Positions 9,095 to 62,799 of a DNA stretch of 64,000 nt are shown here, piece by piece. Within the stretch, counting starts at the first letter, position 1. Every line of letters begins with the position of its first letter. Source of the stretch: Planctomycetota bacterium (GTDB lineage Bacteria; Planctomycetota; B15-G4; JADJEK01); NCBI GenBank assembly GCA_016709145.1, contig JADJEK010000009.1, positions 126,368 to 190,367 on the forward strand, given 5' to 3'. Below the pieces are notes generated by a model. The model was not told the origin of the DNA and did no database searches. It was given only the letters and a program-made list of their open reading frames with translations. Both the position numbers and the translations under genes were made by a program.

Positions 9095-10315
9095 ATGCAA
9101 GATCGCATGAGCCCGTACACGGACCAGGAATTGGAAGCGCTCTTGCGGGACGTCGAATCGGACCGCGTCGAGCGCAAGGAGTCGTTGGGGGGAGACGCGC
9201 CGACCAAGGTCCGGGAAGCCATTTGCGCGTTCGCCAACGACCTCCCAGATCATCGGCGATCAGGTGTCGTCTTCATCGGCGCGACCGACGACGGCCGACC
9301 GGTCGGACTTCCGATCACGGATGAGCTGCTGCGGTTGCTTGCGGATATGAAAACCGATGGAAACACGCTTCCGCCTCCAACGCTCGCCGTCGAGAAGCGC
9401 AAGCTGATGAACTTGGATGTGGCGGTCGTCACCGTGGAACCAGCAGACGCTCCTCCGGTTCGATTCAAGGGGAGGATTCACATCCGTGTCGGGCCGCGGC
9501 GCGCGATCGCGACCGCCCAGGACGAACGTGTTCTCAACGAGAAGCGGCGGCATCGGGATCGTCCGTTCGACACCCGCGCGGTGTCGGTCGCGACCATCTC
9601 GGATCTTGATCGTCGCCGATTCGAGGATGAGTATCTCGTATCTGCGGTCGCGGCGGACGTGCTGGCGGCGAACGAGCGCACGTACGAACAACGACTTGCT
9701 GCTACGAAAATGGTCGTTTCTGCCGACGAGCCCACACCGACGGTCCTCGGAGTCCTGGTGCTCTCGTCGCGCACCCGAGACTTCTTGCCAGGCGCGTATG
9801 TCCAGTTCTTGAGGATCGCCGGCCGAGACTTTGCCGACGACGTCGTCGATGAGCAGACGATCGACGGCGCGGTCGCCGACTTGCTTCGCCGAGTCGAAGA
9901 GAAGTTGATGGCGCACAACCAAACGAGCGTGAGCTTCGCAGAGTCGGTCGTCGAGCGACGGCGATCGACCTACCCAATGGCAGCTCTCCAACAGATCGTG
10001 CGCAATGCCGTGATGCACCGCAGTTATGAGATCACGAACTCACCGATTCGGATCACGTGGTTCGACGATCGAATCGAGATTCTGAGTCCGGGTGGCCCGT
10101 ACGGAGTCGTTACCGAGAGCAATTTCGGCCAGCCAGGGATCGCCGACTATCGGAATCCGAGCTTGGCGGAAGCACTCAAGGTACTTGGGTTCGTGCAGAA
10201 GTACGGCGCTGGAATTGCGACGGCGCGTCGGGCACTCGCAGAGAACGGGAATCCGATCTTCGAGGTCGAGATCACGCAGTCGCACGTCAATTTCACGTTG
10301 CGAGCGCGTTCGTGA
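9095..10315 (+). CDS. COG2865-type ATP-binding protein (AlbA_2/Schlafen-like divergent AAA domain plus RecG-C-terminal-like HATPase_c_4 domain); often annotated as a putative transcriptional regulator
   Basis: 406 aa. N-terminal AICAFANDLP...GVVFIGATDDG segment typical of the AlbA_2 domain. C-terminal LQQIVRNAVMHRSYE segment typical of HATPase_c_4. Lies in a lower-GC island. Confidence 0.65.
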   Translation: MQDRMSPYTDQELEALLRDVESDRVERKESLGGDAPTKVREAICAFANDLPDHRRSGVVFIGATDDGRPVGLPITDELLRLLADMKTDGNTLPPPTLAVEKRKLMNLDVAVVTVEPADAPPVRFKGRIHIRVGPRRAIATAQDERVLNEKRRHRDRPFDTRAVSVATISDLDRRRFEDEYLVSAVAADVLAANERTYEQRLAATKMVVSADEPTPTVLGVLVLSSRTRDFLPGAYVQFLRIAGRDFADDVVDEQTIDGAVADLLRRVEEKLMAHNQTSVSFAESVVERRRSTYPMAALQQIVRNAVMHRSYEITNSPIRITWFDDRIEILSPGGPYGVVTESNFGQPGIADYRNPSLAEALKVLGFVQKYGAGIATARRALAENGNPIFEVEITQSHVNFTLRARS

Positions 10316-15646: not shown

Positions 15647-15664
15647 ACCGAGCTCGACGGCCAT

Positions 15665-15692
15665 GACGGGGACGGAGGCGCGTCTGTCCCCG
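15665..15692. repeat. REP type 2 (GACGGGGACGGAGGCGCGTCTGTCCCCGT), same sequence as the REPs flanking the RAYT gene
   Basis: Exact match to the REP copies at 47774-47803 and 48526-48555. Confidence 0.8.
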
Positions 15693-15757
15693 TTCGCGTC
15701 GGGTCTCGGTCACCGGTCACCGGGACTGCCGTCTCGCGTCCCTCGCACCTGCAACCA

Positions 15758-17512: not shown

Positions 17513-17638
17513 GGGTTTCGATGCTAGCGGGCCGGCCCGGGCCGGGATGGTCGGGGCGGTTTCCGTGGCCGGTCAACGCGCGGCCGGGTGGCCGGGTTCC
17601 CGCGGGGTGCCCGACTTCGGGAAGTCGGTCGACGCGGG

Positions 17639-31280: not shown

Positions 31281-32507
31281 ATGCTTCGCTCTCTGCTCAC
31301 GTGTCTCTCGCTGTTCGGTGCTTCGCAAGCGTTCGCGACCGATTGGGTCGTCGACGCGACCGGTGCCGGGTCGTCGTTCACGACGCTGAATCAAGCGATG
31401 GTCGCGGCGTCGCCCGGCGATCGCATCCTCGTGCATCCGGGCAGCTACCCGGCGTTCCAGATGTTCAAGGGCGTGACGGTGCTCGGACTTGGGCCGTCGC
31501 CCGATGCCGTGAAGATCGCGCGCTGCGACTACCACCCGCTGCAGCCGCTCGTGAACTACGACTCGGCGCTGATGAACCTCGCGCTCGGCAGTGCGGCCGA
31601 CGAGGACTCGATCGCGCTGACGGGCAACGAGCTCGCGCTCGGCACGCTGACGCTCGATTCGGTCGTCGTCGACGGCGCCGTGTTCCTGCGCGGCGGCAGC
31701 ACGGGCTTCTACCTGCAGATGTCGAACTGCTCGGTCGTCGCGCAACCGGGTGAGGGATTCGCGGGCGAAGCGATGTGGTTCGGCGGCATCGGCAATCGGC
31801 TCGACGTCCACGACAGCCGCATCGTCGGTTGGGACTGCCCCGAGTCCACGCCGGCGGTCGGCGCGGGCGTCGGATTGCGGCTCGCGCCCGGCACGCAGGC
31901 GCGCCTGACGGATTCGGTCGTCGCGGGTGGTTCGGGCCTCGGCGCCGGAGTCGCTGGAGCGACCGGGCTCGTCGGTTCGACCGGAACGCTCGAGTTGCTC
32001 GGTTCGACGTCGGTGCATGGCGGCAACGCGTCGCTGACGGCGAATGGCGGCGCGGGCGTCGACTTCGCCGGTTCGTTGCGCACCGGTGCGTCGATCGACG
32101 TCGCGGGCGGTTCTGGCGCTTCGACCGGACCGGCGTACGCGAGCGGGATGCCGAGCGCGTTGCCGGTGGATCCTTCGATCACCGTTGTTCCCGACCGTGA
32201 TATCGCGAGCGGACCGTTCGCGGTCGCGAGCGGCGAAACGCTCGGCTTCTCGACGGCGACCGCGGCCGGCTCGACGGTGCTGCTGATCGGATTCGGCGTC
32301 GATTGCCCGCCGCCGAGCGCCGCGGTGTTCCTGCCGCTCTCACCGGCGCCGATGCTGCTCGTCGGTGGAAACGCGCTGTTCGCTACCGTGCCCGCGTCGA
32401 CGGTCGGACCGCTGTTCGGCATCGAGGTGTTCGCGCAAGCGGCCACCGCGAGCCCGGAGGGCGTGCTGCTGTCCGGAGTCGTCTCCACGAGGATGAACCT
32501 GCAATGA
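31281..32507 (+). CDS. secreted right-handed parallel beta-helix repeat protein
   Basis: Signal peptide MLRSLLTCLSLFGASQAFA with a GGAAGAAGGAG Shine-Dalgarno. Gly-rich repeats with the periodicity of pectate-lyase-fold proteins. Confidence 0.6.
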   Translation: MLRSLLTCLSLFGASQAFATDWVVDATGAGSSFTTLNQAMVAASPGDRILVHPGSYPAFQMFKGVTVLGLGPSPDAVKIARCDYHPLQPLVNYDSALMNLALGSAADEDSIALTGNELALGTLTLDSVVVDGAVFLRGGSTGFYLQMSNCSVVAQPGEGFAGEAMWFGGIGNRLDVHDSRIVGWDCPESTPAVGAGVGLRLAPGTQARLTDSVVAGGSGLGAGVAGATGLVGSTGTLELLGSTSVHGGNASLTANGGAGVDFAGSLRTGASIDVAGGSGASTGPAYASGMPSALPVDPSITVVPDRDIASGPFAVASGETLGFSTATAAGSTVLLIGFGVDCPPPSAAVFLPLSPAPMLLVGGNALFATVPASTVGPLFGIEVFAQAATASPEGVLLSGVVSTRMNLQ

Positions 32508-35251
32508 TCCGATCGTCCGCGCGAACCACGTTCGCCGGCGTTGCGTCCGCCATCGCCCTCGCCGCGGGAGTCCTCGCGGCGGGGGCGAGCGCGCAAACGC
32601 CGGCAGCGCCGAGCCCGGCCAAGAAGGCCGATCCGACCAGCGAAGAAGTTCCGTTGCCGGCGCTCGCCGGCTGGAACGGCACGCTCGTGATCGACAACGA
32701 CGTCGGCGTGTGGACGACGCTCTCCGCCGACATCCTGCCCGGGCACGGGTGTCCGCAGATCGTCGGGCTCGACGACAAGGGCCGCTGCATCGTGCTGTTC
32801 TCGTACAGCGGCAAGTGGACGCCGCTGCAGACGGTCGAGGACGGCGAGTGGCTCGGCGCGTTCGAGTTCGTCGATCTCGATCCGCAGCGACCGGGTCGCG
32901 AGATCTACACCGGCGGCAAGCGCGGCAACCTGTTCTGCATCCAGCCGAACGCGCCGCGCGATCCGGCGCTGAAGACGCCGCCGTTCCAGACCGACGTCGT
33001 CGCGCGCTTTCCCGGCGAAGAGCTGCACACGATGGTCGGCGGCGACTTGCTGCCGTCCGAGCCCGGCAACGAGCTGCTGCTGTACACGCTTCACGGTGCG
33101 GCATACCGCCTGAAGCCGCCGCGCGAGCCGCGCGGCATGCTCGTCGTCGAACCGCTCGGCGACGTCGGTGGTCGCGTACGCGAAGCGAAGATCCTGCCGG
33201 CGCGCGCGGGCGAAGCGCCGTGGATCGCGTGCGTGCTCCGTAGCGGTGAGATCCAACTGCAGCGCCTCACGCCAGGCGGCATCGAGCGCAAGACGATCAC
33301 GAAAGAACCGATGGGCTTCGGTCGCCTCGCGCTGCGCAAGTCCGCGGTCGGCGAGCCGGTCGTGTTCTACGCGACGCGCGACGATGGCGTCGTGCTGCGC
33401 TTCGAGGGCAGCCCCGACCGCGACGCATGGACGCGCGAGCTCGTCTACGCCGGGCCGCAAGGACCGCGCGGACTCGCGTGCGGGCGCTTCTCGGCGGATC
33501 CCGACGAAGAGACGATCGCGGTGTTCGGCTACGCGGCGAAAGTGCAATTGCTGTCGCGCAAGCGCGGGCAGCCGTGGCGCGCGGAGACGATCTTCGTCGA
33601 GCGCGACAAGGGCCATTGGCTCGCCGCGGCGGAGCTCGACGGCCGCAATGCGACGGACGAGCTGATCGCGTCGGGCTACGGCAAGCGTGTCGTGCTGCTG
33701 TCGCGACCGCCGGGATACGGCCTCTCGAACGTGCCGACCGACCCGGATCCGCCGCAGCCGCCGACGGTCGATCCGGGCAAAGCCGGCGCGCAAACTGCGC
33801 CGGAGGGCAAAGCCGGCGCGCAAGCTGCGCCGGCGGGCGACGGCGCGCTGCGCGTCGCGGTGCGCGCGCGGTTGCGCGAACCGGGCCGCGTCGACCCGCT
33901 GAAGTACCACGGCGGCTTCGAGACCAAGACGCTCGTCTACGAGACGCTCGTCACGCGCGACGCCGCCGGACGCATCGCGCCGAAGCTCGCGTCGGCGTGG
34001 GAACTCGAGGATGGTGGAGCGACCGTGAAGTTCACGCTGCGCGAGGGCGCGACGTTCCACGACGGCACGCCGGTCGACGCGCAAGCGGTCGCGATGCACT
34101 TCCGCCGCGTGCTCGGCTTGCCCGAGCACGCGTGGTTGCGCGGGCTCGCTCGCGTGCGGTCGGTCGACGTCGACGGGTCGCGCGTGCTGCGCTTCCGCCT
34201 CGACGCGCCGTGCTCGCTGCTGCCGGATCTGTGCGCGGTGAATCCGTGTTCGATCCGCGCGCCGTCGACGCTCGACCGCGAAGGCGAGTTCGTGCGCGCG
34301 ATCGGCAGCGGTCCGTTCAAGGTCGAGGCGGCGGACTCCGACGGCATGCGCTTGGCGTGGACGCGCGGCAAGGCGCGCTCACCGGTGCAGCTCGTGTTCG
34401 CGTCGGGCGCCGCGGCGGACCTCGTCGATCGTGTGCTCGGCGGTGAGTTGGACGTCGTCGCCGACGGTTGGAGCGAACTCGTCGATCGCTCGCGCGTCGC
34501 GGCGTTGAGGGACGATCCGCGCGTGCGCGTGATCGGCGGGCCCGGGTCGTCCGTCACGTACTTGTCGTTCCTGATCCGCGAGGGGCCGACCGCCGACCCG
34601 GCCGTCCGCGCGGCCGTGGCCGCGGCGATCGATCGCGCGGAACTCGTCAAGGACGTCGAGTTCGGCTGCGCGCAGCCGTGCGCGACGTTCGCCGCTCCCG
34701 CTGTCGCCGATTGGCCGCGAGCGACGCCGCGCGCGTCCGCGACGGACGTCGCGATCGATCGAGCGCTCGTCGTCGTCGGCGACGGCGCGACGCGCGACGG
34801 TCGGCTCGCGGGCGCGATCGTGGCGCAGCTCGCGCGGCGCGGAATCGCTGCGCAGGCGCGCGTGCTCGAAGGAGCGGAACTCGCGAAGGCGATCGAAGGC
34901 GGGGAGTACGACGTGCGGATCGAACGAACCTGGGGAGTGCCGTACGACCCGTACCTGTCGTTCGTGAATCGGTTCTCGACGCCGACTACCGGCGCGACCG
35001 CGGCGACGAAGCCGGTTGCCGGGTTCGACGCGGAACTCGCTCGGATCGCGGACGCGTTGCGCGGCGAGGTCGATCCCGCGAGGCACGGGGAGATGTACCG
35101 GAAGGCTCAGGCTCGGATCGAGGAAGCGAGTGTCGTCGTGCCGTTGTTCGTCGCCGAGAGGGTCGGAGTCGTGCGGAGCGGGGTTGGGGAGATTGCGATG
35201 GGGGTGAATCTTTATGAGATCGGGTTGGAGGGGGTTTTGCGCGGGCGGTGA
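32504..35251 (+). CDS. secreted fusion protein: N-terminal beta-propeller-like repeat domain, Pro-rich linker, C-terminal ABC-type solute-binding protein family 5 (DppA/OppA/NikA-like) domain
   Basis: ATGA overlap with the upstream gene. Signal peptide. Repeated hydrophobic-strand motifs (VLFSYSG, EIYTGG, VVFYAT, IAVFGY, LIASGYG). C-terminal LKYHGGFETKTLVYETLV...ASAWELEDGGATVKFTLREGATFHDGTPV matches SBP_bac_5. No permease or ATPase genes adjacent. Confidence 0.65.
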   Translation: MIRSSARTTFAGVASAIALAAGVLAAGASAQTPAAPSPAKKADPTSEEVPLPALAGWNGTLVIDNDVGVWTTLSADILPGHGCPQIVGLDDKGRCIVLFSYSGKWTPLQTVEDGEWLGAFEFVDLDPQRPGREIYTGGKRGNLFCIQPNAPRDPALKTPPFQTDVVARFPGEELHTMVGGDLLPSEPGNELLLYTLHGAAYRLKPPREPRGMLVVEPLGDVGGRVREAKILPARAGEAPWIACVLRSGEIQLQRLTPGGIERKTITKEPMGFGRLALRKSAVGEPVVFYATRDDGVVLRFEGSPDRDAWTRELVYAGPQGPRGLACGRFSADPDEETIAVFGYAAKVQLLSRKRGQPWRAETIFVERDKGHWLAAAELDGRNATDELIASGYGKRVVLLSRPPGYGLSNVPTDPDPPQPPTVDPGKAGAQTAPEGKAGAQAAPAGDGALRVAVRARLREPGRVDPLKYHGGFETKTLVYETLVTRDAAGRIAPKLASAWELEDGGATVKFTLREGATFHDGTPVDAQAVAMHFRRVLGLPEHAWLRGLARVRSVDVDGSRVLRFRLDAPCSLLPDLCAVNPCSIRAPSTLDREGEFVRAIGSGPFKVEAADSDGMRLAWTRGKARSPVQLVFASGAAADLVDRVLGGELDVVADGWSELVDRSRVAALRDDPRVRVIGGPGSSVTYLSFLIREGPTADPAVRAAVAAAIDRAELVKDVEFGCAQPCATFAAPAVADWPRATPRASATDVAIDRALVVVGDGATRDGRLAGAIVAQLARRGIAAQARVLEGAELAKAIEGGEYDVRIERTWGVPYDPYLSFVNRFSTPTTGATAATKPVAGFDAELARIADALRGEVDPARHGEMYRKAQARIEEASVVVPLFVAERVGVVRSGVGEIAMGVNLYEIGLEGVLRGR

Positions 35252-35425
35252 GGGAGGACGAGGGACGAGGGGGACGCGAGGGACGAGGGGGACGCGAGGG
35301 ACGACGAGGGACGCGAGGGACGAGGGGGACGCGAGGGATGAGAGGGACGAGGGGGACGACGAGGGACGCGAGGGATGAGGGGGACGCGAGGGATGAGAGG
35401 GATGAGAGGGACGCGAGGGATCGGA
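35251..35425. repeat. tandem array (about 19 copies) of the degenerate 9-nt unit GGGACGMGA (array A)
   Basis: 9-nt periodicity read directly from the sequence. Begins at the stop codon of the preceding gene. Confidence 0.85.
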
Positions 35426-35483
35426 CGACCCACCACCAGGGGCGAGACCCGCGCGCCCTTGGTCGCTATCGTCCGCCGCCACT

Positions 35484-36632
35484 ATGACGAACCTCGCGAT
35501 CGCACTGCTCGGGCAGAAGTTCATGGGGCGGGCCCACAGCAACGCCTGGGGCCAGGTGAACAAGTTCTTCGACCTTCCGCTGAAGGCCGCGCTCGACGTC
35601 GTCGTCGGGCGTGACGTCTCCGAGCTCGCCGCGTTCGCGAAGCGGTGGGGCTGGCAGCGGTTCGCCGCCGACTGGCGCGCCGTCGTCCGCGACGATGCCG
35701 TCGGGCTCGTCGACATCGTGACGCCGAACGACCTGCACGCCGAGCCCGCGCTCGCCGCGCTCGAAGCCGGCAAGCACGTCGCCTGCGAGAAGCCGCTCGC
35801 CGGCACGCTCGATCAAGCGCGCGCGATGCGCGACGCCGCGAAGAAGCACGCGAAGAAGGCCAAGACGTTCGTCTGGTTCAACTACCGACGTTGCCCCGCG
35901 GTCGCTCTCGCGCAGCGGCTGATCGCGTCCGGCAAGCTCGGCCGCATCTACCACGTGCGCGCGCATTACCTGCAAGAGTGGGGCGGGCCCGACACTCCGC
36001 TGCTGTGGCGCTTCCAGAAGAAGATCGCGGGCTCCGGCGCGCATGGCGATCTCAACGCGCACATCGTCGACATGGCGCGCTTCCTGCTCGGCGACGAAGT
36101 CGTCGAAGTCCACGGCGCCGTTTCCCGCACGTTCATCACCGAGCGCGTGATCCCCGGCTCCACCAAGACCGGCAAGAGCGACGTCGACGACGCCGTGTTG
36201 TTCCTCGCTTCGTTCAAGGGCGGCGCGGTCGCGAGCTTCGAAGCGTCGCGCGTCGCGTTCGGTCACCAGAACGACAACTCGATCGAAGTGAACGGCGAGA
36301 AGGGCTCGCTGCGCTTCTCGTTCGAAGACATGAACGTGCTCTGGCACGCCGATGCGACCGCGCCGCGCGCGACCAGCGGCTGGACGCGCATCATGGCGAC
36401 CGAAGGCGCGCACCATCCGTACGTGAAGGCGTGGTGGCCTTCGGCGCACGTGCTCGGCTACGAGCACGGCTTCGTCAACATGGCCGCGGACATCCTGCGC
36501 GTGCTCGCGGGCCAGGAGCCCGAAGCGCCGCTGCCGGACTTCGACGACGCCTACCAGACGCAGCGCGTGCTCGAGGCCGCGCTGCTGTCGGCGAAGGAAC
36601 GCACCGCGATCAAGCTCGCGCAAGTGAAGTGA
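35484..36632 (+). CDS. Gfo/Idh/MocA-family NAD(P)-dependent oxidoreductase
   Basis: 382 aa. N-terminal Rossmann fold. EKPLA consensus (ACEKPLAGTLDQA). Confidence 0.75.
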   Translation: MTNLAIALLGQKFMGRAHSNAWGQVNKFFDLPLKAALDVVVGRDVSELAAFAKRWGWQRFAADWRAVVRDDAVGLVDIVTPNDLHAEPALAALEAGKHVACEKPLAGTLDQARAMRDAAKKHAKKAKTFVWFNYRRCPAVALAQRLIASGKLGRIYHVRAHYLQEWGGPDTPLLWRFQKKIAGSGAHGDLNAHIVDMARFLLGDEVVEVHGAVSRTFITERVIPGSTKTGKSDVDDAVLFLASFKGGAVASFEASRVAFGHQNDNSIEVNGEKGSLRFSFEDMNVLWHADATAPRATSGWTRIMATEGAHHPYVKAWWPSAHVLGYEHGFVNMAADILRVLAGQEPEAPLPDFDDAYQTQRVLEAALLSAKERTAIKLAQVK

Positions 36633-47512: not shown

Positions 47513-47718
47513 GGGAACTCGGAGAGCGATGCAGGCGGCGAACTGTGGAACCCCGTGGTGGCGGAGAACCACGCAAGAAAATGACTCGGTCCTGCGTGAG
47601 GGGTCAATGATTCGACGATCTCGCGCCTCGATGCGGTCTTTCCGCGCAACGGCTCGGAGGCGGGCCTGGTCAGCGGGGGATCTCCACTCCCAAGACGTTC
47701 CCGCGCCGTCCACCGCAT

Positions 47719-48555
47719 GACGGGGACAGACGCGCCTCCGTCCCCGTCATGCTCGCAGGGCCACGGCCGCCGCGACGGGGACGGAGGCGCGTCTGTCCCC
47801 GTCATGCTGTAACCCCGGGGCCTCGCGTGCGTCTCCTCGGCATGGCACGACATCCACGACTCGTCATTCCTGAGTTGCTCCAACACGTCACCCATCGCGG
47901 CTGCGGCGGGCAGAGGATCTTTCGGGACGACGAAGATCGCCACGCGTATCAAGCGTCGACGGTCTTCCACGCGAACCGACTGGGCATTTTCATTCCCGGC
48001 CACGTCCAGATGGACAATCACGTCCACTTCGCGCTGTTCGTCCCGACGAAGAAGTCTCTCTCCGAGTTCATCCAGCGACTGCATTCCGAGCACGCGCAGC
48101 GCATGAACGCGAAGTACGGCACTTCGGGGCACTTGTTCGGCGATCGCTTCTATTCCGCCTCCGTCGATGACCGGCCGGCGCTCGAGGTCATTCGCTACAT
48201 CGACCTCAATCCCGTGCGTGCGGGCATGGTCGCGCGTGCGGAGGACTTCGTGTTCTCATCCGCTCGGGCGCACGCGTTGGGGATTCCCGATATCGTGACG
48301 GGCGAACTGTGGAAACCGCTGCGCGAGATCGAGAACTACGCGGAGTGGCTCCGCGAAGTGGCCCCGGATCACGAGCGGCGGCTTGCGACCATTCGCTTAT
48401 GCACGCGCCGGAGTCGCCGCATCACGAACCAGTTGATGTTCGGCGATCAACTGCCGCCTCGATGATGCATGACGGGGACAGACGCGCCTCCGTCCCCGTC
48501 ATGCTCGCAGGGCCACGGCCGCCGCGACGGGGACGGAGGCGCGTCTGTCCCCGTC
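47719..48555 (+). mobile_element. REPIN-RAYT unit: REP doublet (47719-47803), IS200-like Y1 (HuH) transposase gene, REP doublet (48471-48555)
   Basis: The two 85-nt flanks are identical. Each is two 30-nt REPs in inverted orientation (GACGGGGACAGACGCGCCTCCGTCCCCGTC and its reverse complement) separated by a 25-nt spacer. Confidence 0.8.
47842..48465 (+). CDS. REP-associated tyrosine transposase (RAYT; IS200/IS605 TnpA-like Y1 HuH transposase)
   Basis: HuH motif HVHFALF. Conserved Tyr region (YIDLNPVRAG) typical of RAYT/TnpA_REP. Start taken at MARHPRL because the upstream ATG at 47749 lies inside the REP. Confidence 0.75.
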   Translation: MARHPRLVIPELLQHVTHRGCGGQRIFRDDEDRHAYQASTVFHANRLGIFIPGHVQMDNHVHFALFVPTKKSLSEFIQRLHSEHAQRMNAKYGTSGHLFGDRFYSASVDDRPALEVIRYIDLNPVRAGMVARAEDFVFSSARAHALGIPDIVTGELWKPLREIENYAEWLREVAPDHERRLATIRLCTRRSRRITNQLMFGDQLPPR

Positions 48556-48566
48556 ATGCGTTCGGG

Positions 48567-49594: not shown

Positions 49595-50632
49595 TTGCAT
49601 GTCATGCCGAAACGGCGCGCCAGAGTACGCCACGACCCACAGGCGGTCAAACCGACGAAATCGCGACGAAAGGCCGCACCGCGACCGCGCGTGCTGGTCG
49701 TCGGGCCGAACAGCGCGATCGACGAAGTCTTCGCCACGCGCGGGTTCTGCCCGCTCGGCGGCGCGCGTGCCGCCCGCTCGTTCGCGTTCGCCGGCGGCAA
49801 GGCGGCGAACGCCGCGCACGTCGCCGCTCTCGAGGGCGCGGAGTCCACGCTGGTCGGCTTCGCCGGCGGTCCGCGCGGGCGAAGGTTCGCGCGCGGTCTC
49901 GTCGAGCGTGGCGTCCGCGGAGCTCTGGTGCGAACCGCCGCGGACACGCGCCGGACGTTCTGCTTCCTCGATGCCGATGGCGCGAACCCCGTCCTCGTCG
50001 TCGAGGACGGTTCGAGAGTCACGCACGACGAAGTCGCCGCGCTCGAGACGAAAGCACGACGCGAGATCGCGCGCGCCGACGTGCTCGTGCTGTCGGGAAG
50101 CGTGCCGCCGGGATGCGCTCCCACGCTGTACGCGCGACTGATCCGCGCCGCGCGCGAGCGCGGCGTCCCGACGGTCGTCGACGCGCACGGCGCCACGCTG
50201 CGCGCCGCGATCGCCGCGACACCGACCGTGATCGTTCCGAACGAGCGCGAGTTCGCGCAATGGCTCGGCCTCGCCATCGTCGACGGCGTCGACGACACGA
50301 CGCTCATCGACGGCGCGCGTGGCTTGCTCGATCGAGGAATGCTCGCGGTCGTCGTCAAGCAGGGCGAGCGCGGCGTTCTCTGCGTCGAGCGCGATCGCGT
50401 GACGCGCGTCGCCGGTCTGCCGCGCCTCGGCAATGCCACCGGATCCGGCGACGTCGTCACCGCGCACGTCGCGCTCGCGCTCGCGCGAAGGTGGCCCGTC
50501 GTGGTCGCGCTGCCGCGGGCCGTTGCCGCCGCCGGGGCGAACCTCGCGCATGAGCAGCCCGCGCATTACCGCGAGCGAGAGGTCTTGGAGTTGATGAGCG
50601 TGGTGGAGGTGCGCAGGGGCGGGGAGGGATGA
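49595..50632 (+). CDS. PfkB-family carbohydrate kinase (1-phosphofructokinase / tagatose-6-phosphate kinase-like)
   Basis: N-terminal VLVVGPNSAIDEV motif. C-terminal GSGD motif (NATGSGD). Divergent from the aldolase gene. Confidence 0.65.
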   Translation: MHVMPKRRARVRHDPQAVKPTKSRRKAAPRPRVLVVGPNSAIDEVFATRGFCPLGGARAARSFAFAGGKAANAAHVAALEGAESTLVGFAGGPRGRRFARGLVERGVRGALVRTAADTRRTFCFLDADGANPVLVVEDGSRVTHDEVAALETKARREIARADVLVLSGSVPPGCAPTLYARLIRAARERGVPTVVDAHGATLRAAIAATPTVIVPNEREFAQWLGLAIVDGVDDTTLIDGARGLLDRGMLAVVVKQGERGVLCVERDRVTRVAGLPRLGNATGSGDVVTAHVALALARRWPVVVALPRAVAAAGANLAHEQPAHYREREVLELMSVVEVRRGGEG

Positions 50633-50845
50633 GAGGGACGCGGGGGATGCGAGGGACGAAGGGGACGACGAGGGACGACGAGGGACGCGAGGGACGAGAG
50701 GGGCGCGAGGGGCGAGGGGCGCGAGGGACGCGAGGGGGCGGAGGGACGAGAGGGACGCGAGGGACGAAGGGGACGCGAGGGGCGCGAGGGACGAGAGGGG
50801 CGCGAGGGGCGAGGGGGACGCAAGGGACGAGGGGGACGCTGGGGA
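50621..50845. repeat. tandem array (about 25 copies) of the 9-nt unit GGGACGMGA (array B)
   Basis: 9-nt periodicity. Overlaps the last codons of the kinase gene and extends into the intergenic region upstream of the ECF sigma gene. Confidence 0.85.
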
Positions 50846-50930
50846 GACCGTGGGACCGAACAGCAGACCCACACCAGATCGGGCGGGTCGAATCACGGCA
50901 CGGTCGCGAGTCCTGGGTTAGATTCCTCGC

Positions 50931-51491
50931 GTGGCTGACGGCATCGACGCTCCCTCAACTTCGTTCGACGTGCTTTGGGCCGAGGCCGCGCCCCGCCTTT
51001 ACGCGTGGGCCGTCCTGCACTTAAGGCCGGCCGTTCGGCGACGGCTCGACCCCGAGGACGTCCTTCAAGAAGTCGCTTGCCGGGCCTACGGTCAGTTCGC
51101 GCATTTCGATCCCGCGCGCGGGCCGTTCCGTGCTTGGGTGTTCGGGTTCGCGCGCAACGTCCTCAACGAGGGAATGCGGCGCCTGACGTCGATGAAGGGC
51201 GCCTTGCCCGGCGGTTCCCTCTCCACCGGCGTGCTCTCCCAATTGCCGGCCACGACGACGACGCTGAGTCGGGCCGTCGCGCGCGACGAGTCGCTCGCGA
51301 AGTTCGTCACGCGACTCGAGACGCTGGCCGAGGACGAGCGTTGGCTCGTGCTGTTCCATGGGCTCGAGGGGATGTCGCACGCGGCGGTCGGCGAGTTGCT
51401 CCAAGTCACACCCGATGCGGTCGCGAAGCGCTGGCAGCGGTTGTGCGAACGGTTGCGCGACGAGCCGCGGTTCGCGGAACTCGTCGCCTGA
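50931..51491 (+). CDS. ECF sigma factor
   Basis: GTG start. Region 2 (LQEVACRAY) and region 4 HTH (MSHAAVGELLQVTPDAVAKRWQRL). Confidence 0.75.
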   Translation: MADGIDAPSTSFDVLWAEAAPRLYAWAVLHLRPAVRRRLDPEDVLQEVACRAYGQFAHFDPARGPFRAWVFGFARNVLNEGMRRLTSMKGALPGGSLSTGVLSQLPATTTTLSRAVARDESLAKFVTRLETLAEDERWLVLFHGLEGMSHAAVGELLQVTPDAVAKRWQRLCERLRDEPRFAELVA

Positions 51492-53960: not shown

Positions 53961-54074
53961 AGCTCGCACCGCCCGCGCTCACCGAGCACGCCGTCAAGAG
54001 GAGTGCGCGAGCGCGTGGACCCTCGATGACCCTGGCCGAGCCGGGGACGGTCCCGCACCCGTCGCCGCGCTGTC

Positions 54075-54155
54075 CCCGGGCGACGGCCCGGGCGATGGCC
54101 CGGGTGATGGCCCGGGTGACGGCCCGGGTGACGGCCCGGGCGATGGCCCGGGCCT
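54075..54155 (-). repeat. tandem array (about 6.5 copies) of the 12-nt unit CCCGGGTGACGG, the reverse complement of the 2236-2692 array unit
   Basis: Read directly from the sequence. Lies between convergent gene ends. Confidence 0.85.
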
Positions 54156-54219
54156 GCAACGCTTCGGGGCGGAGGATCCTGTTGGACCGCTCCGCCCCGC
54201 ATTGCGTGCTCGAACGAGT

Positions 54220-54450: not shown

Positions 54451-54622
54451 GAGTTCCTTACCTCCCGGCGGTGTCCGTGCCGGAGCGTTCAGTTCGGGAA
54501 ATGAAAAGGGCGGGAGTCTATCCGCCCTCGGGGCCGGGAAGATAGCTCGGATCGCGGGGCGTGCAAACTTGGGAACAATCCAAATCCGTCCCCTCCGGGG
54601 GCGCAGTCGAGGGTGGTGAGCG

Positions 54623-55621
54623 ATGGCAGGTCGGACCGAGCGAGCCTTGGTGACCGGGGCGACCGGATTCGTGGGCGCCGAATTGGTGCGCCTGCTGGTC
54701 CAGCGCGGGTTCGCCGTCCGGGCACTTTGCCGCCCGAGCACGCCGCCGACGCGGTTGGCCGGACTCGACGTCGAAGGCGTCGCGGGCGACGTCACCGATC
54801 GGGACTCGCTGGCTCGGGCGATGCGTGGCGTCGACGTCGTGTTCCACGTCGCCGGTGTCGTCAGCTATCGAACGCGGGACGCGGCGCGCATGCACGCGGT
54901 CAACGTCGTCGGCACGCGCGATGTGTTGGCGGAGGCGCGTGCGGCCGGCGTGCGGCGCGTCGTCCACACGTCGAGCGTCGTCGCGGTCGGCAGCAGCGAG
55001 GACGGCGAGCCGATCGACGAGACCGCGGCCTGGAACCTCGGCGGCATCGGCGCCTACTTCGACACGAAGCGCGCTGGAGAAGCCGAAGTCACCGCGGCCG
55101 TCGCGCGTGGCCAAGACGTCGTCGTCGTCAACCCGGCCGCCGTCCTCGGCGAGGGCGATGCGCGCGGCAACTTGCATCAGCTCGTGCGCATGGTGTTGCG
55201 GCACGGTCGAGCGCTCGTGCCCGGAGGTGGCGTGAATGCGGTCGACAACCGCGACATCGCGCTCGGTCATTTGCTGGCGCTCGAGCGCGGACGCACGGGC
55301 GAGCGCTACGTGCTCGGCTCCGAGAACCTCACGTTCGTCGCGTTCGCGACGCGCCTCGCCGCAGCGCTCGGCAAGCCAGCGCACGTGACGCGACTTCATC
55401 CGGCCTTGATCGCGCTCTTACGCGGAGTCGCGGGTCTGCTCGATCCGCTGTTCGGGATGAAGCCGCCGCTGACCCCTGCGACACTTCGTTCCATGGGCCG
55501 GCGCTTCTGGTTCTCGTGCGCGAAAGCGGAGCGGGAACTCGGATATGCTCCGCGCCCGGTCGACGACGCCATGCACCGTGCGGTCGCCGCCATGCTCGCC
55601 GACAAGGAGTCCCGGTCATGA
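54623..55621 (+). CDS. NAD-dependent epimerase/dehydratase (extended SDR) family protein
   Basis: TGATGFVG Rossmann motif. YxxxK active site (YFDTKRAGE). Confidence 0.75.
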   Translation: MAGRTERALVTGATGFVGAELVRLLVQRGFAVRALCRPSTPPTRLAGLDVEGVAGDVTDRDSLARAMRGVDVVFHVAGVVSYRTRDAARMHAVNVVGTRDVLAEARAAGVRRVVHTSSVVAVGSSEDGEPIDETAAWNLGGIGAYFDTKRAGEAEVTAAVARGQDVVVVNPAAVLGEGDARGNLHQLVRMVLRHGRALVPGGGVNAVDNRDIALGHLLALERGRTGERYVLGSENLTFVAFATRLAAALGKPAHVTRLHPALIALLRGVAGLLDPLFGMKPPLTPATLRSMGRRFWFSCAKAERELGYAPRPVDDAMHRAVAAMLADKESRS

Positions 55622-57751: not shown

Positions 57752-58135
57752 ATGAACGTCCCGCTGCCCGTCCTCGTCGCGCTCGGCGGCGCGCTCGGCG
57801 CGGTGGCTCGTTTCGTCTGCGGCGGCGCGATCACGCGCGCCGTCGCGTCGTCGTTCCCGTGGGGCACGCTGACGGTCAACGTCGTCGGCTCGCTCGCGAT
57901 CGGCGCGATCCTCGGCGTCGCGGAAGGTCGCGGCGGTCTGTCCGACGCGTGGCGCGCTTTCGCGGTGACCGGCGTGCTCGGTGGGTTCACGACGTTCTCG
58001 GCGTTCTCGGCCGAGACTCTCGGGCTGATCCAGCGCGCGCACTACGGCGTCGCCGCCGCGAACGTCGCGGTGTCGGTCGCGCTCGGGCTCGCTGCGGTCG
58101 TGCTCGGCTTCGCGATCGGGAGGGCTCTGACGTGA
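57752..58135 (+). CDS. crcB: fluoride ion channel CrcB/Fluc
   Basis: 127 aa, 4 transmembrane segments. GxxGxxTTFS motif (GVLGGFTTFSAFS). Confidence 0.8.
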   Translation: MNVPLPVLVALGGALGAVARFVCGGAITRAVASSFPWGTLTVNVVGSLAIGAILGVAEGRGGLSDAWRAFAVTGVLGGFTTFSAFSAETLGLIQRAHYGVAAANVAVSVALGLAAVVLGFAIGRALT

Positions 58136-59631
58136 TGCTCGCTTGGCTCGTCGGATGGATGCTCGCGCAGGACGCGTCGACGGTTCCGGCGCCGCCGTCC
58201 TCCGTCGTCGCCGCGCGCGAAGCGATCGAAGCGCATGGACCGAGACTGGTGCGGGACGCGGTCGCATTCGTCGACGGGGACGACGACGTCGTCGAGCGCG
58301 CGCTGCAACAGCGAGCGTTCGAAGTCTCGACCGGCGCCGGCGAGGGCTGGATCGTCGCGGTCCGAGCCCGTCCCGATGCGCGGCGGACGATCGGGTTCCT
58401 CGTGTCGACCGAAGACCAGGCGTTCGCGACGCTGCCCGTCGCATCGGGTGGCCCATCGACGGACGGTGTGCTTTGGCGTGATCGCGGGCGCGGAGCCGTC
58501 GAAGGCGTGCTCCCGCCGCAGGACGGCGAGGCGGTCGATCGCACGCTGCGCTTCGAGGAGGGGGCGAGCGCCGGGAGGTTCGAACTCGCGGCGCTGCTCG
58601 CGGCGATCGACGCGCTCGACGCCGCAGGCATCGGTCCCGCGTCGAACCTCGTCGTCGCGATCGATCGCACGAATCGGCTCGAGGGCTGGGACGAGCTCGC
58701 GGCGCGCGACGTCCCGCTGACCGCCGAGCATGCCGCGGATCTGTGGTGCGTGTTCGCGGGCGCGCCGTTGCCGACGTCGCGCGCGACCGTGGCGTTCGGC
58801 GCGCGAGGCCGCGTCGACGTCGAGCTGACGTTCGACGTGGCCGGCGCGACCGCGGAGCTCGGCACGTACGGCGGCATCGTGCATAACGCCGCGCAGGTGC
58901 TCGCGACCGAGATCGCGGCGCTGCGCAACGAACGCGGCTCGGTCCAGGTCGCCGGCTTCTACGACGATGGCGAGGTGCCGACGGACCACGACTTGATCGG
59001 TCAGGCGCTCGAAGCCGCGCCCGACGTCGAATCGACGTTGAAGGACGCGTTCCGCATCGACGAAGTCGAACTCCCCGGCGTCGGCATGAACGGGCTCGCG
59101 CTGCGGCCATCGCTCGAAGTCGTCGCGCTCGACGCGGGTCGTGCGTTCGGCGACTCGCGTGCGTTCGTCGCGGGTCGAGCGAGCGCACAGTTGCGCGCGT
59201 TCACGATTCCCGGGCAGACGCGCGAACAGGTCGCTTCGCGACTGCGTGAGCATTTCGGCATGCGTGGATTCGTCGTCCGCGATGCGCCGCTGTCGGGAAC
59301 TCGAGTCGAACGCCACCGCATCGCGGCCTGCGTCGTGTCGGATCGCGGCTTCGACGCGCAACGCATGTCGCTCGACCAGGCGATCGTGATGCCGCTGTTC
59401 CAGGCCGTGTTCGCGATCGAACGCAAGCCCCCGGTCATCGCGCCGTCGCTGCCGGCCGCGCTCGATCTGGCGATCCTGCCGCTGAAGCCAGGCGGCGCGC
59501 GCGTGCTGCTGCCGCAAGGCAACGACTCGATGAGTCGGCTGCCGCCGCGCGTGCGCGAGAGCGGGACGGTTGGGGCTTATTTTCGGTGCGTCGAGACGGT
59601 TGCCGGCGTGCTCGAAGTCGGCGGTCGGTGA
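58135..59631 (+). CDS. hypothetical protein (weak resemblance to peptidase M20-like dimerisation architecture; function uncertain)
   Basis: ATGA overlap with crcB. 498 aa. No clear catalytic motif recognised. Confidence 0.45.
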   Translation: MLAWLVGWMLAQDASTVPAPPSSVVAAREAIEAHGPRLVRDAVAFVDGDDDVVERALQQRAFEVSTGAGEGWIVAVRARPDARRTIGFLVSTEDQAFATLPVASGGPSTDGVLWRDRGRGAVEGVLPPQDGEAVDRTLRFEEGASAGRFELAALLAAIDALDAAGIGPASNLVVAIDRTNRLEGWDELAARDVPLTAEHAADLWCVFAGAPLPTSRATVAFGARGRVDVELTFDVAGATAELGTYGGIVHNAAQVLATEIAALRNERGSVQVAGFYDDGEVPTDHDLIGQALEAAPDVESTLKDAFRIDEVELPGVGMNGLALRPSLEVVALDAGRAFGDSRAFVAGRASAQLRAFTIPGQTREQVASRLREHFGMRGFVVRDAPLSGTRVERHRIAACVVSDRGFDAQRMSLDQAIVMPLFQAVFAIERKPPVIAPSLPAALDLAILPLKPGGARVLLPQGNDSMSRLPPRVRESGTVGAYFRCVETVAGVLEVGGR

Positions 59632-59668
59632 CGCGACGGAGCGACGGACGCGAGGGACGCGAGGGACG
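59632..59668. repeat. short array (about 3.5 copies) of the 9-nt GGGACGMGA unit (array C), adjacent to a REP-like hairpin
   Basis: Directly after the upstream stop codon. Confidence 0.75.
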
Positions 59669-59670
59669 CG

Positions 59671-59705
59671 AAGGGTTCAGGGACTGACCCCGCATCGGGG
59701 TCTGT
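59671..59705. repeat. REP-like hairpin variant (GGGACTGACCCCG / CGGGGTCTGTCCCC) ending in the CCCCGTCATGC tail shared with the other REPs
   Basis: Near-perfect inverted repeat in the sequence. Confidence 0.6.
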
Positions 59706-59781
59706 CCCCGTCATGCGCCCGTCATGCGTTCGCGTTCCGTCGCCGTCGAGCACACCTCTTGAGTCCGGCGGCTGCGCCGCC

Positions 59782-61095
59782 TCAGTCGATCTCGGGCGCC
59801 ACGTTCTCGCCGCCGGTCGTGAACACGTTGGCGGTGAACGTCGCGGTGCCGTCGTTCGCGAGGTCGAGGCGGCTCTGCTTCGCGTCGTTGTCGGTGATCG
59901 TCGCGTTCGCTCCCGAGTTCTCGATGCCCTCGGCGAGGCAGCGGCGCACGACGTTGTTCGTCACGACCGCGGCTGTGGCCTGGGCACCGACATCGATGCC
60001 GTCGCGTCCGCAGTCCTTGATCGTGTTGTCGTCGACGACGATCGCGCCGCCATTGCCGAGCGCGATACGGATCCCGTCGCCGCCGAGGCGCGACAGGACG
60101 TTGTCGGCCACGGTGACGTCGGAGGCTGCGTCGATCAGGATTCCAGCGGTGCCGAGCGACCCGCACCGCTGGACCTTGTTGTTCCGGACCGAACCGATCG
60201 CCGATGGCCCGATGCGGATCGCGGTCCCGTTGGAGTCCCGGATCGAGTTCTTGCGGATGTCGCAGGTCCCGAGATCGACGTCGATAGCGGAATTGGAGTC
60301 CTTGAACGTCCGACGGATCGTGTTGTCGGTGAGCGTCATCAGCGCACCCGAGACCAGGAACGCGCGCCGCGTGCCGTCGACCGAGTTCTTGCGGACGGTG
60401 ATCGTGCCGCCGACGGCGACGTCGACGCAGTCCGTCGAGATGTCCTTGAAGCGGCAGTCGACGACGTCCAGAGAGCCGACGAGGTCGCCGCCGACACCAT
60501 CACCGCTGATGTTCGTGAACGAGCACCCGACGATGACCGCCGACCCCGGGCCGTCGAGTTGAATCGAGTCGAAGCCGAGTTCGAACGCGCAGTCGACCAC
60601 GCGAGCGAGCCCCGAGCCCGAGATGCGGATACCCAGACCGGAACCGACGAACTTGCAGTCCTCGATCGTCGGATCGGCTCCGGTCGTCTCGATGCTGCGG
60701 AATTCGCACGCGAGGAATCGGCACTTGCGGATCCGTGGTCGATTCCCGCTGACCGAGATGCCGTGCCCGGGGTCAGCGTCAGTGACCGGATTCCGGATCG
60801 TGAGTCCCGAGACCTCGACATCGTCGGACGCGATCGTGAGCGCGATTCCGCCGTTTTGGTCGAACCCGTCGAGGATCGCGCCCGGCTTCGCCTTGATCCG
60901 CAGTCCGTCCTTGCCCACCGGCACGACGACGCGTTCGTCGAACACGCCGGCTTTGACCACGATCACGTCTCCGGCCGCCGCGGCGTCGACACCGGCTTGG
61001 ATCGAGTCGATCGGTCCGTTCTTCGCGACTTCGATCACCGCCGCGGACAGCGGACCGCAGCTCAGCGACAGGATGATCATGGGGGCGAGTTTCAT
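59782..61095 (-). CDS. secreted right-handed beta-helix repeat protein (paralog 1)
   Basis: Start at MKLAPMIILSLSCGPLSAA with an AGGAGA Shine-Dalgarno. Parallel beta-helix repeats. C-terminal FTTGGENVAPEID. Confidence 0.65.
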   Translation of the reverse strand: MKLAPMIILSLSCGPLSAAVIEVAKNGPIDSIQAGVDAAAAGDVIVVKAGVFDERVVVPVGKDGLRIKAKPGAILDGFDQNGGIALTIASDDVEVSGLTIRNPVTDADPGHGISVSGNRPRIRKCRFLACEFRSIETTGADPTIEDCKFVGSGLGIRISGSGLARVVDCAFELGFDSIQLDGPGSAVIVGCSFTNISGDGVGGDLVGSLDVVDCRFKDISTDCVDVAVGGTITVRKNSVDGTRRAFLVSGALMTLTDNTIRRTFKDSNSAIDVDLGTCDIRKNSIRDSNGTAIRIGPSAIGSVRNNKVQRCGSLGTAGILIDAASDVTVADNVLSRLGGDGIRIALGNGGAIVVDDNTIKDCGRDGIDVGAQATAAVVTNNVVRRCLAEGIENSGANATITDNDAKQSRLDLANDGTATFTANVFTTGGENVAPEID

Positions 61096-61132
61096 CGGGG
61101 TCTCCTGGGTTCGCGAGGGGCGAAGCAGTCGG

Positions 61133-62476
61133 TCAGTCGATCTTGGGCGCAACGTTTTCGCCGCCGGTCGTGAACGACACGGCGACGAGGGTCAGCGTGC
61201 CGTCGTTCGTGACGTCGATGCGGTTCTTCTGGAACACTCCGTTCGACGCGGTGGTCGACGGACCGCTGTTGTCGAGGCCCTCGGCGCCGCAGAACTTGGC
61301 GGCGCATCCGTCGAGCGTCACGTTGGCGGCCGTGGCATCGACGTCGAAGCCGTCCTTGCCGCAGCGCACCGCGAGGCAGCCCTCGAGGTTCACGCCGTCG
61401 GCCGCGACGAGGAACCCGTCCCCGGCGACGTCGATCGCGGAGCAGTCGACGAGTTGGCAGCCGTCGCCCTCGATGAGGAACGACGCCAAGAAGAGCGAGG
61501 GGGTCGAGCGGCGAACGACGTTCGCCACGACGATCGCGTTCGTCGCCGTTGCTTGGATGTCGATCGCCGTTCCGCCGACGGCTTGGAGGCGATTGCCTTC
61601 GATCGTCGCGCCGATGGAATTGCGGACGTTCAGCGCGGACGAGTTCGACGCAGCTCCGTCGATGACGTTGTCGCGGATCACGAGCCCGTCCCCGCGCACG
61701 CTGATCCCGCCGCCACCGCGCTTGATCGAGCATTTTTCCACGAGGAGATTCGCGGCTCTCATCGAGACCGCGTTGCCTTCGAGGTGCTCGAACTTGCAGG
61801 ACTTGACGACGGTTCCATCGTTCGTGTCGGAGAACGAGCCCCGGAAACCGGTGACGCCGCCACGCACGATGCACTTCGAAAATGTGGCCACGGCTTCGTC
61901 CAGCAGATCCGCTGCTCGATCGGTGTTGGAGTCGAACGTGACCTTCTCCACGAGTGCGACGCCGGTCGTCGAACCGACGACGATCCCGATGTCGTTCGCC
62001 ACGAGTTTCGACGACCTCACGACTGCGTCCGGTCCGAGCAGAATGATCCCCGAGTCGACGCATCCCGTGATCAGGCAGTTCTGGATCCTGCACCGTTCGC
62101 CGGTCACGCGAATCCCGTCGCCGGGGTTGCCGGCGGCTGGCGTCGCGTTGCGCACGGCGAAGCCCCGCACCACGACGTCGTTCGACGCGACTTGGATGCC
62201 CGCGCCTGCGGCAACACCTCCCGCGGGAAGCGCGTCGAGGACGACTTTGCCGGTCGCTGCGAGGTTGAGACCGTCCTTTCCGACCGGGATGGTGACGTTC
62301 TCGAAGTAGATCCCGCCGGCGACGCGGACCGTGTCGCCGGCCGCAGCGCTATCGACTCCCGCTTGGATCGTCGAAAGCGGGCCGTTCTTCGAGACCTTGA
62401 TGACGGCGGCGTCGGTCGAGTTCGTGGCCAGGAGCAAGAGCGCGCACGCGGGAAGGACGACTTTGGAACAGCGCAT
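61133..62476 (-). CDS. secreted right-handed beta-helix repeat protein (paralog 2)
   Basis: Start at MRCSKVVLPACALLLLATNS with an AGGAGG Shine-Dalgarno. Same architecture as paralog 1. C-terminal FTTGGENVAPKID. Confidence 0.65.
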   Translation of the reverse strand: MRCSKVVLPACALLLLATNSTDAAVIKVSKNGPLSTIQAGVDSAAAGDTVRVAGGIYFENVTIPVGKDGLNLAATGKVVLDALPAGGVAAGAGIQVASNDVVVRGFAVRNATPAAGNPGDGIRVTGERCRIQNCLITGCVDSGIILLGPDAVVRSSKLVANDIGIVVGSTTGVALVEKVTFDSNTDRAADLLDEAVATFSKCIVRGGVTGFRGSFSDTNDGTVVKSCKFEHLEGNAVSMRAANLLVEKCSIKRGGGGISVRGDGLVIRDNVIDGAASNSSALNVRNSIGATIEGNRLQAVGGTAIDIQATATNAIVVANVVRRSTPSLFLASFLIEGDGCQLVDCSAIDVAGDGFLVAADGVNLEGCLAVRCGKDGFDVDATAANVTLDGCAAKFCGAEGLDNSGPSTTASNGVFQKNRIDVTNDGTLTLVAVSFTTGGENVAPKID

Positions 62477-62584
62477 CTCGGGAGCCTCCTGCGTCGGCGA
62501 ACGAGCGCAAGCTCGGCACGGGGACGCAGGATCGACCACGCAGTAGGTGGAGCTTGGCGACACGGAATTTGGGAAAAGTGGGAT

Positions 62585-62695
62585 CGAAGGGACGCGAGGG
62601 ACGCGAGGGACGATGGGGACGACGAGGGACGACGAGGGACGCGAGGGACGACGAGGGACGCAAGGGACGCGGGGGACCGCAGGGACGCCTTGGAC
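62585..62695. repeat. tandem array (about 12 copies) of the 9-nt GGGACGMGA unit (array D) in a divergent promoter region
   Basis: Lies between the start of the minus-strand beta-helix gene (62476) and the plus-strand gene starting at 62800. Confidence 0.85.
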
Positions 62696-62799
62696 CTCGA
62701 TCTGTCGGCGGAGTCACAGTCCACGCCGGGGCTGGAACCCCGCGCGACCGAGGACACAATGACCGCGCCCTCGGAGTTCGCAGTCGGTTGGAGCCCTCG

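Follow-up and report, generated by a model that had tools for sequence, protein, structure and literature searches.

A 64,000-nt stretch of a Planctomycetota bacterium genome (assembly GCA_016709145.1, contig JADJEK010000009.1, positions 126,368 to 190,367; hereafter, the window) carries four head-to-tail arrays of one G-rich 9-nt unit, GAGGGACGM, which on balance are probably non-coding variable-number tandem repeat (VNTR) or long simple-sequence-repeat loci, that is, near-neutral by-products driven by slippage. Arrays of the family arise, grow, shrink and disappear over the time that species take to diverge. Array 2, the locus at the center of this analysis, lies between the genes for a PfkB kinase and an extracytoplasmic function (ECF) sigma factor. 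Array 1 separates an SBP_bac_5 gene from a gene for a Gfo/Idh/MocA oxidoreductase (GFO), array 3 follows an M20-like gene, and array 4 occupies the region between divergent beta-helix and PKD genes (Table 1).

The four arrays were detected by Tandem Repeats Finder (TRF) as repeats of period 9, at coordinates nearly identical to those given in a preliminary description of the same DNA, which had proposed a single 9-nt unit at four loci; its copy numbers (19, 25, 3.5 and 12) were also close to those obtained with TRF (Table 1). The two-unit pattern GAGGGACGMGAGGGACG, allowing for at most 2 mismatches, had 39 matches in the window, compared with 0.23 expected from shuffled sequences, and all 39 were on the + strand inside the 4 arrays. 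Outside the arrays the unit was not over-represented, with GAGGGACG occurring once per strand versus ~2.5 expected. TRF and parsing into units showed that array 1 is built from the unit types GGGACGA, GGGGGACGCGA, GGGATGAGA and GGGACGACGA, with a higher-order period of 55 nt, and parsing showed that the units of array 2 include GGGGCGCGA variants; the 10-nt variant GGGACGACGA is common to arrays at different loci. The edges of the arrays carry degenerate units, and higher-order periods of 18, 19 and 55 nt (TRF) are each confined to single arrays. Such traits are typical of VNTRs and support this interpretation. A CRISPR-like or iteron identity could be ruled out, given that the arrays have neither spacers nor a replication context.

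Variation of the arrays among strains and related species

Near-identical counterparts of the arrays are available in a second metagenome assembly, GCA_020851675.1, which is 99.0-99.96% identical to the metagenome assembly analyzed here over an overlap of ~20 kb. Arrays 1 and 3 were identical in the two assemblies (contigs L001 and L262, respectively). By contrast, array 2 (L257) differed by one extra 10-nt GGGACGACGA unit and by one G fewer in a G5 run, and array 4 (L262) by one extra 9-nt unit, versus 2 single-nucleotide polymorphisms in 5 kb. Leaving aside a mosaic patch at 54.6 kb, these were the sole indels in the ~20 kb aligned. Thus, copy number differs between close strains at arrays 2 and 4. 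Arrays were also found at the ends of contigs L242, L243 and L263, which were assembled from three further sequencing runs and, as short-read assemblies, break inside the arrays. The recurrence of the arrays in independent assemblies rules out that they are assembly artefacts.

The substitutions between the near-identical assemblies cluster in two patches, at 50458-50584 and 54594-54805. The former, located just upstream of array 2, comprises 17 substitutions, mostly 6 nt apart. This pattern suggests that the patches are recombination tracts imported from a diverged relative, and that the tract at 50458-50584 ends at or in array 2.

Among related species, the arrays were gained or lost at orthologous sites. 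At the site of array 2, the PfkB-sigma spacer of L243 (~91% nucleotide identity) measures 59 nt and contains no array, whereas in the sister species (~87% nucleotide identity; L244-L256) the spacer is 104 nt long and one GAGGGACGCG unit is located inside the PfkB C-terminus. In L242, a 93% relative, the array is present and the contig ends inside it. At the site of array 1, the sister contigs L258 and L264 carry only TGAGGGACG or TGAGGGTCG at the stop codon, followed by a hairpin, and L260 and L261 (88-90% nucleotide identity) carry two units followed by an unrelated 240-bp insert. Contig L263 (91% nucleotide identity overall, ~96% locally) begins inside the array and has its 3' end. Inferring selection from the retention of this 3' end was rejected, because the local divergence is only ~3-4%. 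No array was found at the site of array 3 in the sister species contig L247.

The same unit has also expanded at a site at which the window has no 9-mer array: in L243, an array extends from the TGA of a Ser/Thr kinase-FGE gene. Three different arrays occupy the site 3' of this gene in three related species (Table 1). Across the sites of the arrays, the spacers of the relatives measure 59-109 nt, and the 56 nt upstream of the sigma factor start are conserved across species, as is the sequence upstream of the GFO start. Single-unit seeds or remnants persist at the same positions in relatives; overall, the relatives in which arrays 1 and 2 are missing or cut down to one or two units have 80-91% identity. 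Taken together, the presence or absence of arrays among relatives, the single-unit sites and the change of copy number between strains substantiate the proposal, made in the preliminary description, of a minisatellite family that expands and contracts.

Two further differences between the window and its relatives were observed at these sites. The ~240-bp insert of L260 (positions 9690-9940) contains internal inverted repeats (GGCAAATCCG...CCGGTTTACGG / CCGTAAACCGG...) and may be a miniature mobile element. In the sister species, 87 bp (L247, 18729-18816) take the place of a 3.08-kb segment of the window (59633-62713) that is bounded by arrays 3 and 4 and carries two beta-helix (Pel9A-like) genes.

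Placement, reading frames and physical properties

The genes flanking the arrays are supported by Pfam matches, and their domains end before the arrays. Three of the 4 arrays start at the stop codon of a co-oriented upstream gene and the fourth lies between divergent genes, so that the placement at stop codons or in divergent context noted previously is confirmed. At array 2, the PfkB stop codon falls within the third unit, and the final residues of the protein, RGGEG, are encoded by array-like sequence. Array 3 is followed by a hairpin resembling a repetitive extragenic palindrome (REP) and then by a convergent beta-helix gene; the claim that one array abuts a REP hairpin is thus correct for this locus. 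Overall, a unit was found at most 45 nt past the stop codon at 4 of the 33 gene 3' ends in the window, with the G-rich strand being the sense strand every time, and the orientation was sense at all 5 independent gene-end sites. One of the 4 ends in the window, that of a - strand gene, is followed by an isolated copy of 1.7 units, sense-oriented to this gene and located ~30 nt before a REP, an arrangement like that of array 3 but on the other strand. This copy could be a seed, a remnant or a chance occurrence (rough p ~0.02). The G+C content of the window is 69% and its GC skew is positive throughout, for which reason the + strand is probably the leading strand.

Table 1. Arrays of the 9-nt unit, flanking genes and related features in the window and in contigs of relatives
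Feature	Position	Strand	Description
Array 1	TRF 35250-35420; extent to 35422	+	18.7 copies (~19 units); consensus GAGGGACGA
Array 2	TRF 50624-50839; extent 50616-50845	+	24.0 copies (~24-25 units); consensus GAGGGACGC
Array 3	TRF 59630-59671	+	4.8 degenerate copies; GACGCGACG/GAGGGACGC
Array 4	TRF 62588-62688; extent 62569-62690 with degenerate edge units	+	10.9 copies; consensus AGGGACGCG
Open frame through array 1	35248-35487	+	79 codons; GTGA at SBP_bac_5 stop, ATGA at GFO start; judged not to be a gene
Open frame through array 2	50629-51024	+	131 codons; ATGA at PfkB stop; judged not to be a gene
SBP_bac_5 gene	32303-35251	+	TGA stop 35249-35251; array 1 starts there (GGTGAGGGAGG)
GFO gene, 3' of array 1	ATG at 35484	+	Pfam
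PfkB kinase gene	49595-50632	+	TGA stop 50630-50632, supplied by GGGATGAGA unit
ECF sigma gene, 3' of array 2	GTG at 50931	+	Pfam
M20-like gene	57859-59631	+	TGA stop 59629-59631; array 3 starts there
Beta-helix gene flanking array 4	Start 62476	-	Pfam; divergent from PKD gene
PKD gene flanking array 4	Start 62800	+	Pfam; divergent from beta-helix gene
Isolated 1.7-unit copy	15729-15744	-	GAGGGACGCGAGACGG; 13 nt past stop (15758-15760) of gene 15758-17572
REP-like hairpin adjoining array 3	59680-59708		GGGACTGACCCCG-CAT-CGGGGTCTGTCCC
Array 3' of kinase-FGE gene, window	53961-54160		12-mer
Array 3' of kinase-FGE gene, L243	5014-5065		GAGGGAYGA family
Array 3' of kinase-FGE gene, sister L247	13031-13160		GCAGGGCGA

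The arrays are non-coding. Parsed at the G-runs, their units measure 7, 8, 9, 10, 11 or 12 nt, and because of this variation the frame shifts inside each array, so that any frame switches repeatedly among the (GTR), (EGR) and (RDA) registers. There is no gene on record in the array intervals of the near-identical contigs L001 (array 1) and L257 (array 2), and the indels between strains amount to +10, -1 and +9 nt. The preliminary description had reached the same conclusion, noting that no convincing start, ribosome-binding site or stop defines a gene. Its conclusion stands, but this detail needs correcting, because open frames that overlap the start or stop codons of the neighboring genes do exist at arrays 1 and 2 (Table 1), the latter frame ending out of frame within the ECF sigma gene. 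Overlaps are present at both ends of the frame through array 1, at the 5' end only for arrays 2 and 3 (ATGA or GTGA) and at neither end for array 4, a pattern compatible with chance. Only the T-variant of the unit contains a stop codon, and there are none at all on the - strand; the frames through the arrays are thus open because the unit is nearly stop-free and not because they are coding.

It is against this background that a coding role has to be judged, in which the arrays would either encode collagen-like or low-complexity peptides, (G-T-R / E-G-R / R-D-A)n, or extend the upstream proteins at their C-termini. The + strand frames are largely open and the - strand frames fully open, and the single unit of the sister species is indeed part of the PfkB C-terminus (...GGDDEGRAARNL). 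However, no single uninterrupted (G-X-Y)n frame within a defined gene was found, the frame changes several times per array, and the array is missing from orthologues whose proteins are otherwise intact. Considering also the absence of recorded genes and the sizes of the strain indels, the coding explanation is largely refuted already and is extremely improbable.

The arrays stand out in composition, purines making up 72-83% and G 50-61% of their + strand. Their G-C skew, calculated over 80 nt, reaches 0.49, the most extreme value in the window (mean 0.02, sd 0.084), and the predicted Watson-Crick folding energy of both strands ranges from -0.09 to -0.31 kcal/mol/nt, versus -0.47 +/- 0.06 for random 200-nt windows. 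By these measures, the arrays are the least base-paired and the most G/C-skewed segments of the window. Of the 19 canonical G-quadruplex (G4) motifs, (G3+N1-7)x4, on the + strand of the window, 16 fall in arrays; the - strand has 1 motif. Arrays 1, 2 and 4 contain 5, 7 and 3 non-overlapping motifs, respectively, and array 3 a single motif dependent on flanking Gs. The mean G4Hunter scores of arrays 1-4 were 1.37, 1.60, 0.62 and 0.99. Thus, the potential for quadruplex-like structure raised in the preliminary description was borne out by the canonical motif for arrays 1, 2 and 4, but a G4Hunter score of at least 1.5 was reached only by array 2. The predicted G4 propensity appears real for arrays 1 and 2 and is not uniform across the family.

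Searches for known regulatory elements yielded nothing attributable to the arrays. An Rfam scan of the region 34-64 kb (E<=1) gave no match at the arrays, its sole match being a chance-level miRNA elsewhere. In the region 49.5-63.5 kb, no promoter-like sites were found in a sigma-70 promoter scan, and the intrinsic terminators predicted were located away from the arrays and were no commoner than in shuffled sequences.

Slippage and alternative explanations

The following course of events would fit these observations. A short GAGGGACG-like seed would be extended into an array by replication slippage together with unequal recombination of blocks of one to six units, and the array would shrink back by the same route. 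It would persist only where extra DNA is tolerated, a few bases after the upstream stop codon or overlapping it, because the spacers are short and their downstream parts, in which the promoter or leader of the next gene presumably resides, are conserved. When an array invades the last codons of a gene, its survival would require a TGA to close the frame, either as GGTGA or as the GGGATGA variant; the junction or a T-variant unit (GGGATGA) may often provide this stop codon. A survivorship effect is the simplest explanation for the anchoring at stop codons. The arrays are strongly asymmetric between strands, the G-rich one being the sense strand of the gene upstream and, in the window, probably the leading strand. 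Any effect of the arrays would be expected on 3' untranslated or intercistronic RNA.

Several observations weigh against slippage as the complete explanation. The same unit, including the GGGACGACGA variant, is present at four or more unrelated loci although the word is not common elsewhere, which is not easily explained by independent slippage and implies that there was some copying from one locus to another or that this particular sequence was selected. That the unit is a common genomic word that has seeded arrays repeatedly was rejected, since it occurs at or below expectation outside the arrays. Furthermore, the anchoring at stop codons (3 of the 4 arrays, L243, L242 and the copy at 15.7 kb) combined with the sense orientation could reflect a function, and the presence of three arrays in three species 3' of the kinase-FGE gene suggests a hotspot or selection for the presence of some array. 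Finally, the differences in copy number were observed between metagenome assemblies and could partly reflect assembly error. Because the recurrence of the unit and its constant sense orientation are not explained by slippage, functional explanations have to be retained, each at a low probability.

One of these is that the arrays act as G4 or R-loop elements in 3' untranslated regions, where they would pause or terminate RNA polymerase or protect mRNA 3' ends from exonucleases, as REP hairpins do. The structure would form in the G-rich non-template DNA or in the RNA during transcription of the upstream gene. The concentration of + strand canonical motifs in the arrays, the G4Hunter scores of arrays 2 and 1 and the sense orientation of the G-strand in every gene-end case are consistent with this possibility, as are the drop from -43 to -89 kcal/mol in the energy predicted for array 2 when G4s are permitted (ViennaRNA) and the hairpin which the sister species has at the site of array 1 instead. 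However, arrays 3 and 4 scored low in G4Hunter and were not predicted to form G4s by ViennaRNA, and G4s with loops of 6-7 nt are weak. Moreover, close relatives have no array or a single unit at the same sites, and hence no locus needs its array. We consider such a role unlikely.

The opposite strand offers another possibility, namely that the arrays are strand-specific candidate Rho-loading sites. Antisense RNA from the arrays would be 100-230 nt long, unstructured, C-rich and G-poor, and would stop antisense or read-in transcription arriving from the downstream region, whereas the sense RNA would be free of Rho utilization (rut) sites and its transcription would continue. Published descriptors of rut sites include C>G skew, little secondary structure, regularly spaced YC dimers and 60-80 nt of single-stranded RNA (PMC6144790). 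The antisense strand of the arrays fits them (at least 60-80 nt, C-rich, G-poor, unstructured, with YC dimers) except at array 3, which at 40 nt is too short; the C content of the C-strand is 50-61% and its G content 14-28% (58-61% and 14-16%, respectively, in arrays 1 and 2), and the extreme skew noted above and the weak predicted folding (-0.09 to -0.26 kcal/mol/nt) point in the same direction. On the other hand, the arrays are not conserved at the same sites among relatives, and the composition follows automatically from the sequence of the unit, so that selection is not required. This proposal is quite unlikely to account for the arrays.

Insertion rather than local growth would be expected if the family were a mobile or copy-pasted element similar to MIRUs (mycobacterial interspersed repetitive units), entering stop/start junctions with a small translationally coupled frame that makes the insertion tolerable. 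MIRUs are described as inserting with an ORF coupled at -4 spacing (PMC12548453). The same unit is present at non-orthologous loci in two species, the frame 35248-35487 has -4 overlaps at both ends, and the frames of arrays 2 and 3 start with ATGA or GTGA. However, overlaps at both ends were found only for array 1, and by our own estimate about half of the TGA stops in this GC3-rich genome should read NTGA. The arrays have no defined element termini, their edges decay, and the frame-shifting units yield no consistent peptide; in addition, the single-copy seeds at the same sites in relatives favor local growth over insertion. Such an element is therefore very unlikely. A hybrid scheme, in which a self-propagating family reaches new gene ends through template switching or gene conversion, using GAGGGACG-like microhomology found at stop codons, and is kept as a directional transcription boundary, is as doubtful as the Rho proposal. 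If it were true, the boundary would be G4- or R-loop-prone and rut-free in the sense direction and strongly Rho-loading in the antisense direction, constituting a repeat-built functional substitute for hairpin terminators and REPs in a planctomycete of high GC content. Near-neutral growth and loss by slippage, filtered by position, remains the explanation that we favor.

Known repeat families and significance of the arrays

The arrays resemble the short tandemly repeated repetitive (STRR) sequences of cyanobacteria, in which one short head-to-tail unit is dispersed over many intergenic loci (PMC2670836). The function of STRR sequences is unknown, with transcript stability or translational coupling having been proposed (PMC2670836). 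Likewise, the 9-nt unit was found at multiple dispersed loci, 4 in the 64 kb and the non-orthologous one in L243. STRR units, however, usually measure 7 bp, are found in filamentous cyanobacteria and can form hairpins, whereas the arrays described here have 9-bp units, belong to Planctomycetota, are the least base-paired segments of their surroundings and have no sequence relation to STRR sequences. By analogy, the STRR sequences appear to be the nearest counterparts of the family, followed by the MIRU-VNTR loci of mycobacteria. MIRU units are 40-100 bp long, compared with 9 bp here; furthermore, a double overlap is present in only 1 of the 4 arrays, relatives carry seeds and there are no element boundaries. 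The likeness consists in high-GC intergenic repeats that adjoin or overlap stop and start codons with -4 overlaps (PMC12548453) and vary in copy number between strains. Thus, the 9-mer family is a member of neither STRR nor MIRU, from which it differs in unit length, host and sequence, and yet is the same kind of element.

Prokaryotic genomes tolerate slippage-prone tandem repeats with units of 4-11 bp, and in a few of these genomes such repeats show extreme over-representation between genes (PMC4060949). In the same survey, the over-representation of GGG-cluster patterns, which promote G4s, was strong in Isosphaera pallida, a planctomycete, and extreme in Nostoc, Anabaena and Microcystis; arrays such as those in the window would give a signal of this type, but the survey does not describe the underlying elements (PMC4060949). 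VNTR loci of bacteria such as Xanthomonas and Ralstonia serve as strain markers in multiple-locus VNTR analysis (PMC6459536, PMC7723262). In typical VNTRs each locus has its own unit, whereas here one unit in one orientation is shared by several loci. Pattern scans of contigs of other genomes (GGGACGNNNGGGACGNNNGGGACG) and of metagenome contigs (GGGAYGMGRGGGAYGMGRGGGAYG) gave, among the matches listed, mostly unrelated GGG-containing 9-mers from Streptomyces, other high-GC taxa and low-GC, probably eukaryotic contigs; arrays among these listed matches did not generally adjoin stop codons. Contig L237, which at first seemed to share two unit types with the window, was set aside as an apparently unrelated low-GC contig, possibly eukaryotic.

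REPs and bacterial interspersed mosaic elements, which are associated with REP-associated tyrosine transposases (RAYTs; Y1 family), are also dispersed intergenic repeats located downstream of genes, and the window contains both REP-like palindromes and a Y1_Tnp gene. However, REPs are imperfect palindromes that form hairpins, whereas the 9-mer arrays consist of directly repeated units, show next to no self-complementarity and do not contain a stable hairpin-forming palindrome. The Y1 transposase (RAYT/IS200-like) gene, at ~47827-48465, is located between two 93-nt repeats (47714-47807 and 48467-48560), each of which holds an inverted pair of the motif CATGACGGGGACAGACGCGCCTCCGTCCCCGTCATG. This region (47714-48560) is present in the sister contig L247 and absent from L249. 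The REP flanking the Y1 gene also occurs at 15660-15690, and the palindromes on either side of the transposase gene have CCCCGTCATGC in common with the related hairpin that adjoins array 3.

A second tandem family, with irregular units of 9-13 nt (CCCGGGCCGTCA / CCCGGGYGAYGG), was observed at 1668-2795 and 54075-54153. The former locus is a gene-free stretch of 1.1 kb, which also contains C10 and G13 runs and repeated GGTGCTGTTTGGG. The latter (6.6 copies) is located 3' of the kinase-FGE gene and before a hairpin (54167-54200), the stem of which is conserved in the sister species; this 12-mer array was of equal size in the second assembly, with no alignment difference.

Taken as a whole, the 9-mer family is an ordinary fast-evolving repeat family of modest practical value. 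Its arrays provide ready-made VNTR strain markers for an uncultured planctomycete lineage, explain the breaks of short-read contigs of this lineage at gene ends and account for most of the canonical G4 motifs found on the + strand of the region. Of greater interest is that one unit is found at several unrelated gene ends, always in the sense orientation, and that one site carries three arrays in three species. If the arrays did set transcript boundaries, they would represent an unusual, repeat-based alternative to hairpin terminators.

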